Origin: Escherichia coli O157:H7
Lineage (GTDB): Bacteria; Pseudomonadota; Gammaproteobacteria; Enterobacterales; Enterobacteriaceae
Strand: one strand, 5' to 3'
NCBI RefSeq assembly: GCF_013167455.1
Contig: NZ_CP038328.1
Length of the DNA: 64,000 nt
Shown one piece after another: positions 6,869-40,910 of this stretch (its first letter is position 1; every line of letters starts with the position of its first letter). The translations under genes were made by a program, and so were the position numbers. Below the pieces are notes generated by a model. That model was not told where the DNA came from, ran no database searches, and saw only the letters and a list, made by a program, of their open reading frames with translations.

Positions 6869-7798
6869 GTGAAAACACTAATAAGAAAATTCTCCCGTAC
6901 GGCCATCACGGTCGTATTAGTCATTCTGGCCTTCATCGCAATTTTTAATGCCTGGGTCTATTACACCGAATCCCCCTGGACGCGTGACGCGCGCTTTAGC
7001 GCTGACGTCGTTGCGATCGCGCCGGACGTTTCTGGACTCATTACCCAGGTGAATGTTCATAACCAGCTGGTGAAAAAAGGACAGGTTCTGTTCACCATCG
7101 ACCAGCCGCGCTATCAAAAGGCGCTTGAGGAAGCGCAAGCCGATGTTGCTTATTATCAGGTACTGGCACAGGAGAAACGCCAGGAGGCCGGACGTCGTAA
7201 CCGTCTCGGTGTGCAGGCGATGTCTCGCGAAGAGATCGACCAGGCCAACAACGTACTACAAACGGTTCTGCATCAGTTAGCGAAAGCGCAGGCGACCCGC
7301 GATCTGGCAAAACTGGATCTTGAACGCACGGTGATCCGCGCGCCAGCAGATGGCTGGGTGACCAACCTCAACGTCTATACCGGTGAGTTTATTACTCGTG
7401 GATCAACGGCGGTTGCGCTGGTGAAACAGAACTCTTTCTATGTACTGGCCTATATGGAAGAAACTAAGCTGGAAGGGGTGCGCCCTGGGTATCGTGCAGA
7501 GATCACGCCGCTTGGCAGTAACAAAGTGCTGAAAGGGACTGTTGATAGTGTTGCCGCTGGGGTCACCAACGCCAGCAGCACGCGTGACGACAAAGGGATG
7601 GCGACCATCGACTCTAACCTTGAATGGGTGCGTTTGGCGCAACGTGTTCCGGTTCGTATTCGTCTCGACAACCAGCAAGAGAACATCTGGCCTGCGGGCA
7701 CCACTGCTACAGTGGTGGTCACTGGCAAACAAGATCGCGACGAAAGCCAGGATTCGTTCTTCCGTAAAATGGCCCATCGCCTGCGTGAGTTTGGTTAA
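6869..7798 (+). CDS. aaeA: p-Hydroxybenzoic acid efflux pump, membrane-fusion subunit AaeA
   Basis: 309-aa ORF with GTG start; single N-terminal TM then HlyD-like body; aaeB starts 5 nt after its stop. Confidence 0.9.
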
Positions 7799-38416: not shown

Positions 38417-39070
38417 ATGAAGAAAATTGGCGTAATTCTGAGCGGATGCGGCGTCTATGACGGTTCTGAAATTCATGAAGCGGTGTTGACGTTGTTAGCT
38501 ATTTCACGCAGCGGTGCGCAGGCGGTCTGCTTTGCACCGGATAAGCAGCAGGTTGATGTTATCAATCATTTAACTGGCGAAGCGATGACGGAAACGCGCA
38601 ATGTGCTGATTGAAGCGGCACGAATAACGCGCGGTGAAATCCGTCCTCTGGCCCAGGCCGATGCCGCTGAACTGGATGCGTTGATTGTGCCGGGGGGGTT
38701 TGGCGCGGCAAAGAATTTAAGCAATTTTGCCAGTCTTGGTCGCGAATGCACCGTTGACCGTGAATTAAAGGCGCTGGCACAAGCGATGCATCAGGCCGGA
38801 AAACCGCTTGGTTTTATGTGTATTGCCCCGGCGATGCTGCCGAAAATTTTCGATTTCCCGCTGCGTTTGACCATCGGTACTGATATCGATACCGCAGAAG
38901 TGCTGGAAGAGATGGGCGCGGAGCATGTGCCGTGTCCTGTCGATGATATCGTGGTTGATGAAGACAATAAGATTGTCACCACCCCGGCATATATGCTGGC
39001 GCAGAACATTGCAGAAGCGGCGAGCGGCATTGATAAGCTGGTTTCCCGCGTGCTGGTTCTGGCTGAATGA
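38417..39070 (+). CDS. elbB: Glyoxalase ElbB (DJ-1/PfpI family)
   Basis: 217 aa from ATG 38417 ([21 protein letters not shown]...). Confidence 0.85.
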
Positions 39071-39795
39071 GTAAAAGCCGCTTAACGGTGTTTAGTTTCG
39101 TTCGCCGTTTTCTTCTGCGGTTAATGGTTGTCCTCGCCGTTTTCTGGGGCGGGGGCATCGCGTTGTTTAGCGTTGCACCTGTTCCCTTCTCTGCGGTAAT
39201 GGTCGAGCGACAGGTCAGCGCCTGGCTGCATGGTAATTTTCGTTACGTGGCACATTCTGACAGGGTCAGTATGGATCAAATCTCGCCGTGGATGGGACTG
39301 GCGGTGATTGCCGCAGAAGATCAGACATTTCCTGAGCACTGGGGCTTTGATGTCGCTTCCATTGAGAAAGCCCTGGCGCACAATGAGCGCAATGAAAACC
39401 GTATTCGCGGTGCTTCAACGATTTCTCAACAGACAGCCAAAAATCTCTTTTTATGGGATGGGCGTAGCTGGGTTCGAAAAGGGCTGGAAGCCGGATTAAC
39501 GCTGGGGATAGAAACTGTCTGGAGCAAAAAGCGTATCCTGACGGTTTACCTGAATATCGCCGAATTTGGCGACGGTGTGTTTGGCGTCGAAGCTGCGGCA
39601 CAACGTTATTTCCACAAACCCGCGAGCAAACTTACCCGATCGGAAGCTGCCTTACTGGCAGCTGTATTACCTAATCCACTTCGTTTCAAAGTCTCCGCGC
39701 CATCGGGCTACGTGCGCAGCCGTCAGGCGTGGATTTTACGGCAGATGTATCAGTTAGGCGGTGAGCCGTTTATGCAACAACACCAGCTGGATTAA
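39067..39795 (+). CDS. mtgA: Monofunctional biosynthetic peptidoglycan transglycosylase
   Basis: 242 aa; N-terminal TM and GT51 motif ([17 protein letters not shown]); overlaps the elbB stop by 4 nt. Confidence 0.9.
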
Positions 39796-40424
39796 GCTTC
39801 GCGCGAAGCGAGGGCCAGCGTTTTGCTCTCACGAGGTTGCAGATCTTTCTGCAGGGCAATAGCCAGCGCCGGTTGGGCGATAAATCGTTTCCACAACCGC
39901 TCTTGCTTACGCAGACAACACCACTTTGACCAGGTCGCCAGTGGAATCAATGTGCTTTCACCAATGTTGTCGCAGACGACGGGGATAACCTCTGACTCAC
40001 TAATGCGGTGACAGAGGATATTCTGCGGCTTCAGCGACATCGTCACGATACGGTTATCCTGCAAATAACGCTTCAGCTGTTTCAGTAATTGGCGCAGTTG
40101 TGCAACGTCTTCTTCGTAACGGCATTGTTCAGCAAATTCGGTCAGCGTAATGGAGGGCTTGCCGTCAAAATCAGCAATCACATCATAAACATAACCGGTT
40201 CCGCAATCCGTCTCGACGGTACCGTGATAGCGCGGTATTCCACTCCAGTCTTTTAACCGGCGACCAAGATGCGCGTAGTACTTTAACTCACGACGGATCT
40301 CTTTATCGCCACCATCGCCACGATGGTAGACAATCTTGATACAGCGTTGGGCATCTTCCGGATGCGCATAACATTTCCGATGTCTTCCGGTGCCCAGGGG
40401 ACTTTGTTCAGATAAGCGAATCAT
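39792..40424 (-). CDS. yrbL: Uncharacterised protein YrbL (PhoP-regulated in E. coli)
   Basis: 210-aa ORF matching YrbL. Confidence 0.8.
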
Positions 40425-40474
40425 GCCATCTCCTGGAAATATTTTCTGACGATCTCCAGTATGGTCGATTAACT

Positions 40475-40491
40475 TAAACGAAACCTAAACA
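40475..40491 (-). promoter_or_regulatory. PhoP-box-like direct repeat upstream of yrbL
   Basis: minus strand TGTTTAggtttCGTTTA (hexamer, 5-nt spacer, hexamer), about 50 bp upstream of the yrbL start codon. Confidence 0.5.
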
Positions 40492-40495
40492 ATGC

Positions 40496-40517
40496 TTCTT
40501 AAGGTTTTCTTAAGGTT
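40496..40517. repeat. Perfect tandem 11-bp direct repeat (TTCTTAAGGTT x2)
   Basis: ttcttaaggtt ttcttaaggtt, immediately beside the PhoP-box-like site in the npr-yrbL spacer. Confidence 0.6.
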
Positions 40518-40637
40518 CTTCTGAAAGTAAAAAGCGCACGAAATGTACAATTGACGTTGATTGAGAACGATTTCAGTACGTGATTTTCTTATTGTCGGGG
40601 GGAGTTTGAAGGGAGTTGTATGTCAAAGTGATGAAGA

Positions 40638-40910
40638 TTAATCTTCATCAAAACCAGAATTAAAGAGGGCGATAACGGCGGCCAGTGCTTCCTCTTCCTG
40701 TGGACCGGTCGCTTCAACTTCAATCTGCCGTCCTTTGGCAGAATCCAACATCAGCAGCGCAATAACGCTGTTGGCTTCAGCCTCGGTGCCTTCGTCATTA
40801 CGTAACAGCACTTCAGCGTCAAAACCCTGCATTAATTCAAACAGCTTCATTGCAGGCCGGGCATGCATGCCCAGCTTGTTTGTGATTTCAACAGTTTGCT
40901 TGACAGTCAT
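40638..40910 (-). CDS. npr: Nitrogen-PTS phosphocarrier protein NPr
   Basis: 90-aa HPr-like protein with the active-site His context GMHARPA. Confidence 0.9.

Follow-up and report, generated by a model that had tools for sequence, protein, structure and literature searches.

A tandem 11-bp repeat upstream of yrbL in Escherichia coli O157:H7 as a probable PmrA/BasR operator abutting the PhoP box

The gene yrbL is a textbook marker of the PhoP regulon, and its upstream region in Escherichia coli O157:H7 carries, directly next to a PhoP-box-like site, a tandem repeat of 11 bp. A preliminary description of this DNA, made from the sequence, offered two readings of the repeat, either a second direct-repeat operator of an unnamed regulator or a recent duplication. 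The question raised by the locus is which of the two it is and, if an operator, whose. It is addressed here within the window, i.e., the whole 64-kb stretch of DNA that was analyzed, as well as in other E. coli genomes and in related genera.

The npr-yrbL spacer and its PhoP-dependent promoter

Across the region, the window and O157:H7 strain PV15-279 share 100% identity, and the RefSeq annotation was taken from the record of that strain. The yrbL coding sequence (39792-40424, minus strand) encodes a kinase-like protein of 210 aa annotated in RefSeq as PhoP regulatory network protein YrbL, and npr (ptsO; 40638-40910), with which the rpoN operon ends and which is likewise on the minus strand, forms the upstream edge of a spacer of 213 bp. 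In the yrbL direction, this spacer contains the two repeat copies AACCTTAAGAA AACCTTAAGAA (40517->40496), GCAT, the PhoP box TGTTTA GGTTT CGTTTA (40491->40475), 11 nt, the hexamer CATACT (40463->40458), and a 33-nt leader that ends at the ATG (40424). The leader with the ribosome-binding region (CCAGGAGA; 40425-40457, minus strand) had a mean conservation of 0.77 over 17 taxa. Neither consensus promoters nor terminators were detected by scanning 40380-40700, no Rfam family matched in the spacer (including the conserved block described below), the only ORFs in the spacer were three short, TTG-started ones (21-44 aa), and the predicted RNA fold of the spacer was not significant (z = -1.5). In addition, the ribosome-binding region is overlapped by a Dcm site (CCAGG, 40431-40435), and the leader also contains a Dam site (GATC, 40450-40453); according to a preprint, yrbL is among the most significantly upregulated genes in a dcm deletion. 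At its other end, yrbL converges with mtgA (39067-39795, plus strand), and the two coding ends overlap by 4 bp at 39792-39795.

The sequence and coordinates previously given for the PhoP-box-like site at 40475-40491 proved exact. The minus strand (40491->40475) reads TGTTTAggtttCGTTTA (also written TGTTTAGGTTTCGTTTA), i.e., TGTTTA-ggttt-CGTTTA in direct orientation relative to yrbL, which is a direct repeat with one mismatch to (T/G)GTTTA-N5-(T/G)GTTTA; a C at the first base is allowed by the published (C/T/G)GTTTA submotif (PMC3335776). Unlike K-12 yrbL, in which the promoter-proximal half is TGTTTA and the whole box (TGTTTAGGTTTTGTTTA) matches the pattern perfectly, the O157-type window has CGTTTA in this half. 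When the 64-kb window was scanned for KGTTTA-N5-KGTTTA with one mismatch allowed, the pattern was found twice against an expected 0.85 occurrences, and the match alone is therefore not significant. The case for the PhoP box is carried by position and conservation rather than by the motif match. The box lies 11 nt (40464-40474) upstream of the invariant -10 hexamer of the PhoP-dependent yrbL promoter, CATACT (40458-40463, minus strand; identical in 16 of 17 taxa), which agrees with the 11-12 nt that separate a single direct box from the -10 and with the arrangement published for yrbL, so that the earlier assignment to PhoP was right. In Salmonella, the -10 of yrbL is also CATACT (PMC3335776, Table 2), and the promoter belongs to architecture I: the one PhoP box that footprinting revealed is directly oriented and separated by 11 nt from the -10 (Table 1 of the same paper), and the promoter has a single S1-mapped start and a leader of 32 nt (PMC3335776). 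The architecture I class of PhoP-activated promoters (mgtA, phoP, slyB, pmrD, orgB, and yrbL) thus lists yrbL itself as a member (PMC3335776), and, as in the others, its only PhoP box is a direct one that precedes the -10 by about one helical turn. Similarly, PhoP binding to Shigella yrbL was detected by EMSA, and expression fell to 0.02 of the wild-type level in a phoPQ deletion (PMC5775216). The regulators listed for yrbL are BasR and PhoP (PMC4145685).

The tandem repeat as a probable PmrA/BasR box

The perfect tandem 11-bp repeat claimed at 40496-40517 was also exact in sequence and coordinates: on the plus strand, 40496-40506 and 40507-40517 both read TTCTTAAGGTT. Tandem Repeats Finder reported a period of 11 and 2.4 copies at 40495-40522, and a repeat finder reported two copies that are 100% identical. 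A PmrA box is defined by two half-sites, CTTAAG (half1) and xTTAAT (half2), that lie 5 bp apart (PMC3973317; PMC10570014). The core of the repeat, CTTAAG-GTTTT-CTTAAG (40498-40514, plus strand), agrees with this two-hexamer arrangement and its 5-bp spacing without mismatch. A scan of the window for YTTAAK-N5-YTTAAK without mismatches, for which 0.08 occurrences would be expected in 64 kb, matched at the tandem site alone; since CTTAAG is palindromic, the site can be read on either strand.

For comparison, the K-12 promoters of three PmrA-activated genes, eptA, pmrR, and arnB, were fetched and scanned. Their boxes are CTTAAGGTTGGCTTAAT, CTTAAGGTTCACTTAAT, and CTTAAGGTTAAGTTAAT, respectively, and the yrbL site on the plus strand of the window, CTTAAGGTTTTCTTAAGGTT, has the same first nine bases. 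The extended half-site CTTAAGGTT, which is the same as in these K-12 boxes, is present twice in tandem at yrbL, and according to it the box would point away from the gene. The PmrA-activated promoters (eptA/pmrC, arnB/pbgP, pmrR, and ugd) and yrbL have in common the two hexamers 5 bp apart; the yrbL site differs in that both of its halves have the strong half1 sequence, it is not placed over the -35 position, and it has no -10 hexamer 10 nt downstream. In K-12, the region upstream of eptA (7627-7673 of the fetched sequence) shows a further feature, as the box CTTAAGGTTGGCTTAAT is directly mirrored by a second one, CTTAAGGTTGGCTTTTAT, on the other strand, which results in a palindromic double arrangement around TTAAGnnCTTAA.

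At eptA, pmrR, and arnB, the box is followed after exactly 10 nt by a hexamer whose second base is A and whose sixth is T (GAGCAT, CATACT, and TAAAAT, respectively). The corresponding hexamer on the plus strand at yrbL is AAGTAA in O157 and AAGTGA in K-12, and the stretch at this activating distance is not conserved outside E. coli. As no -10-type hexamer follows after 10 nt, the site appears to be a PmrA box without the activating geometry. Judged from the sequence, this excludes it from the activated class, not from binding PmrA, and it fits the repression reported for this gene. The same evidence bears on the idea that the box drives a divergent, PmrA-activated promoter on the plus strand whose RNA would be antisense to npr. 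The box does lie on the plus strand like the activating boxes, and O157 has TAAAAA 13 nt downstream of it; however, the -10 of the activated class comes exactly 10 nt after the box, the essential final T is missing from AAGTAA/AAGTGA, the stretch is unconserved outside E. coli, the consensus promoter scan was empty, and no ORF or Rfam family was found downstream. A divergent promoter is therefore very improbable.

Repression by PmrA, in contrast to the activated class, is what has been reported for the yrbL box, which lies upstream of the promoter and faces away from it. Zwir et al. are said to have obtained a PmrA footprint on E. coli yrbL in 2005. PmrA has been described as binding and repressing the E. 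coli yrbL promoter (PMC3335776, citing Zwir 2005; a later statement from the same group), and the yrbL promoters of both E. coli and Salmonella carry PhoP and PmrA sites approximately 24 bp apart (PMC2681069, likewise citing Zwir 2005). When E. coli B had adapted to iron, the BasR regulon (eptA, the arn genes, and basR) was upregulated and yrbL was downregulated (PMC13405929), which is a correlation only. Dual control of yrbL, on by PhoP and off by PmrA/BasR, is thus already known and published; PhoP activation as well as PmrA binding and repression are taken here from the literature, and the identity, geometry, and conservation of the site come from the present analysis. The tandem repeat very probably serves yrbL as its PmrA/BasR operator, through which the PhoP-activated promoter is repressed. 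The useful result is the right label for the tandem, an operator of PmrA/BasR and not a duplication. The details added are that it would consist of two strong half-sites, face away from the gene, share one side of the helix with the PhoP box that it abuts, and show almost no variation in 5,400 E. coli genomes.

The similarity between the boxes of the two regulators raises the possibility that the tandem is instead a second PhoP box in reverse orientation (GGTTTT-N5-GGTTCT, plus strand), in which case yrbL would have a two-box promoter. The 11-bp units of the PhoP box (TTGTTTAGGTT) and of the PmrA box (TTCTTAAGGTT) are indeed 9/11 identical and form an inverted pair, GGTTTT and GGTTCT lie 11 bp apart and agree with the PhoP hexamer at 5/6 and 4/6 positions, and the scan flagged GGTTTTCTTAATGTTTT in Salmonella with 2 mismatches. 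Nevertheless, the second pseudo-half-site is not conserved (TATTGT in Citrobacter) whereas the CTTAAG/CTTAAT hexamers are, and DNase footprinting revealed a single PhoP box at Salmonella yrbL (PMC3335776), all of which makes a second PhoP box a most unlikely explanation.

A PmrA/BasR operator at this place also has a counterpart in Salmonella pmrD, which, like yrbL, combines a PhoP box at the -35 position with a PmrA box upstream. PmrA has been reported to repress both pmrD and yrbL, and PhoP and PmrA jointly control these two genes in a 'bi-fan' network motif (PMC2681069; PMC3335776). The distance between the boxes differs, being approximately 38 bp at Salmonella pmrD (PMC2681069) versus 23-24 bp at yrbL. 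Upstream of K-12 pmrD, no PmrA box was found within 3 mismatches at a sensible place, and this promoter therefore provides no second E. coli example of the repressor geometry.

Conservation of the spacer in E. coli and other genera

The extent of variation was surveyed in 5426 complete E. coli genomes using two queries, a 321-nt region and a 30-mer centered on the tandem. The 321-nt region was found in 5425 of them, and in 29 of 30 rows sampled across the ranking the alignment spanned 320-321 nt; the exception was strain S931B, aligned only from query position 83 because of an IS1 upstream of the boxes. In this strain (NZ_CP196521.1), the IS1-like element is located at the equivalent of ~40618, just downstream of npr and upstream of the conserved block, and the insertion leaves all operators intact. 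The 30-mer aligned without gaps, with at least 80% coverage and at a single place per genome, in 5424 of the 5426 genomes (identical in 2006, one mismatch in 3405, and more in 13), and in 5167 genomes a 32-mer around the tandem matched exactly over 28 or more consecutive nucleotides. The common mismatch concerns a flanking base (AAGAGG in K-12 versus AAGAAG in O157); the K-12 repeat is 21/22 identical and its 17-bp box is intact. Even the most divergent genome sampled had CTTAAT in one half, which is still within the consensus.

A phylogenetic footprint was based on an alignment of 17 taxa. Mean column conservation was highest for the -10 hexamer (0.96), followed by the PmrA box (0.92), the upstream block (~0.87), and the PhoP box (0.84), with 0.52-0.66 in the intervening spacers. 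A PmrA box with at most one mismatch was present at the equivalent position in Escherichia spp., Citrobacter, Salmonella, Siccibacter, Pluralibacter, and Superficieibacter, and across these genera the half-sites differ only by point substitutions at constant length. On the plus strand, most Escherichia have CTTAAGGTT as the yrbL-distal half-site; it is replaced by CTTAATATT in E. albertii, in Pluralibacter, and in three strains of Citrobacter (R56, Awk 4, and NCU1), by CTTAATGTT in Salmonella, and by CCTAATGTT in C. amalonaticus.

These data bear directly on the second option of the preliminary description, a recent duplication by slippage, i.e., a mini-VNTR that would itself be without function. 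Two adjacent 11-mers that do not differ at any base and a weak third copy (8/11, at a 12-nt offset) are what such an event could leave behind. Against it, length variation is absent, with the 30-mer at one place per genome in 5424 genomes; two half-sites are found at this position in every genus examined; the second half forms a substitution series (CTTAATATT / CTTAATGTT / CTTAAGGTT); and the K-12-type repeat is already only 21/22, with one flanking base different. Slippage is hardly credible in view of this evidence. Thus, the part of the description that proposed a second direct-repeat operator stands, with PmrA/BasR as the probable regulator, and the part that proposed a recent duplication falls, since 5424 of 5426 genomes are without copy-number variation.

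The orientation of the PmrA/BasR box can also be followed across genera. Citrobacter, E. albertii, and Pluralibacter have CTTAAG-N5-CTTAAT on the plus strand, the published half1/half2 form (PMC3973317), and these forms indicate that the box is oriented away from yrbL. Because CTTAAG is palindromic, the predicted orientation in E. coli itself derives only from the flanking GGTT and from the orthologs. In Cedecea colo and Erwinia sp. CPCC 100877, a PmrA-type box, CTTAAGGTTTT(C/A)TTAAG, is found on the yrbL strand, 84-125 nt upstream of yrbL and at a distance other than that in E. coli; Cedecea has no clear PhoP box. The reversed box in Cedecea and in one 'Erwinia sp.' suggests that the orientation is not universal and may not matter.

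Two-box geometry, iron, and a conserved upstream block

The half-sites of the two boxes start at 40514, 40503, 40491, and 40480, i.e., with spacings of 11, 12, and 11 bp, and the gap between the PhoP and PmrA boxes was measured as 6 bp, or 23 bp from center to center. This regular spacing would place two dimers on one face of the helix, abutting each other and covering approximately 45 bp. The boxes also form a 22-nt inverted repeat (40471-40517) with arms that are 16/22 complementary and 3 nt apart, and a role of this quasi-palindrome as an RNA or DNA hairpin, e.g., an attenuator of npr read-through, can practically be dismissed, since shuffled sequences were predicted to fold as well as its RNA (z = -0.05), no U-run follows, and the resemblance between the half-sites of two paralogous regulators accounts for the complementarity.

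In the proposed mechanism, the spacer would comprise the yrbL promoter and two back-to-back operators of related response regulators of the OmpR family. The PhoP box takes the place of the -35 element, and phosphorylated PhoP acts there as a class II activator in low Mg2+. Phosphorylated PmrA/BasR arises via BasS, in response to Fe3+ or mild acid, or via PhoP-induced PmrD, and the PmrA dimer on the opposite strand, facing away from the yrbL -10, would repress yrbL when bound. PmrA~P probably hinders either the occupancy of the PhoP box or contacts of the RNA polymerase alpha subunit just upstream of it. We infer this likely steric step and a possible meaning of the reversed orientation, and the membership of the network is drawn from the literature. 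In the circuit, PhoP activates yrbL and pmrD, PmrD protects PmrA~P, and PmrA~P would then repress yrbL; the outcome could be a transient response of yrbL in low Mg2+ and silencing of the gene in Fe3+. With the details of the site given above, yrbL would offer a clean natural test case for one OmpR-family regulator blocking activation by another.

Besides the two boxes and the -10, a 20-bp block (TTGTACATTTCGTGCGCTTT; 40531-40550, minus strand, 40550->40531), located 16 nt upstream of the PmrA box in the yrbL sense, hardly varies among Escherichia, Citrobacter, Salmonella, and Superficieibacter, in contrast to its two flanks, which diverge; its conservation equals that of the two known operators. 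It is also recognizable in Siccibacter and Pluralibacter, and a non-syntenic copy in Enterobacter hormaechei has a recognizable version of it in the corresponding place. A canonical npr terminator is visible in C. amalonaticus, Siccibacter, and Pluralibacter, and the block lies downstream of it, which suggests that the block is part of the yrbL control region. Scans of the block for promoters, terminators, and Rfam families gave no match, and comparison with the marbox, the RstA half-box, the OmpR half-site, and the Ada box (AAAGCGCA) resulted in partial or chance-level matches. We tentatively consider, at somewhat less than even chances, that the block, the PmrA box, the PhoP box, and the -10 constitute, in this order, a four-part module that travels with yrbL, in which the block would be the operator of a third regulator. 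A bulged hairpin that ends in the conserved block and a U-run was also considered and discarded, as it is specific to E. coli and lost in Citrobacter and Salmonella.

Part of the response of yrbL to iron has been attributed to Fur, and two ChIP-seq studies list the gene as a direct Fur target. The weak Fur ChIP-seq summit in strain CFT073 (NC_004431.1, 3,781,815) corresponds to ~40553 of the window, 3 nt from the conserved block; its height is 72, compared with hundreds to thousands for classic targets. Expression of yrbL was 5.7-fold up in a fur mutant and 1.7-fold up in a fur ryhB double mutant. The best match in the spacer to the 19-bp Fur box consensus (GATAATGATAATCATTATC) was 10/19, and random 216-bp pieces of the window mostly reached 10-11. 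A Fur box in the spacer was rejected, because 10/19 is background, and the conserved block is also unlike a Fur box. It is possible that the effect of Fur is indirect, e.g., through overproduction of siderophores that lowers the sensing of Fe3+ by BasS.

The regulation of yrbL may also be informative about its product. YrbL matches Pfam PF10707 (E 1e-67) and shows a weak match to Pkinase, and a contig from a gut metagenome carries two genes of the YrbL family that adjoin a gene of the Kdo-kinase family. Selections with TAT-RasGAP, a cationic peptide, twice gave point mutations in yrbL, alongside envZ, basS, and rfaY. The peptide selections, the kinase likeness, and the Kdo-kinase neighbor hint at a role of YrbL in the cell envelope. 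A further hint would come from the proposed operator, through which yrbL would be off whenever the PmrA program that reduces the charge of lipopolysaccharide is on. In addition, a contig of 420 bp from Tannerella forsythia ATCC 43037 (NZ_JUET01000135.1) encodes a YrbL fragment 98% identical to that of E. coli, and this contig is almost certainly a contamination of the assembly with E. coli DNA.
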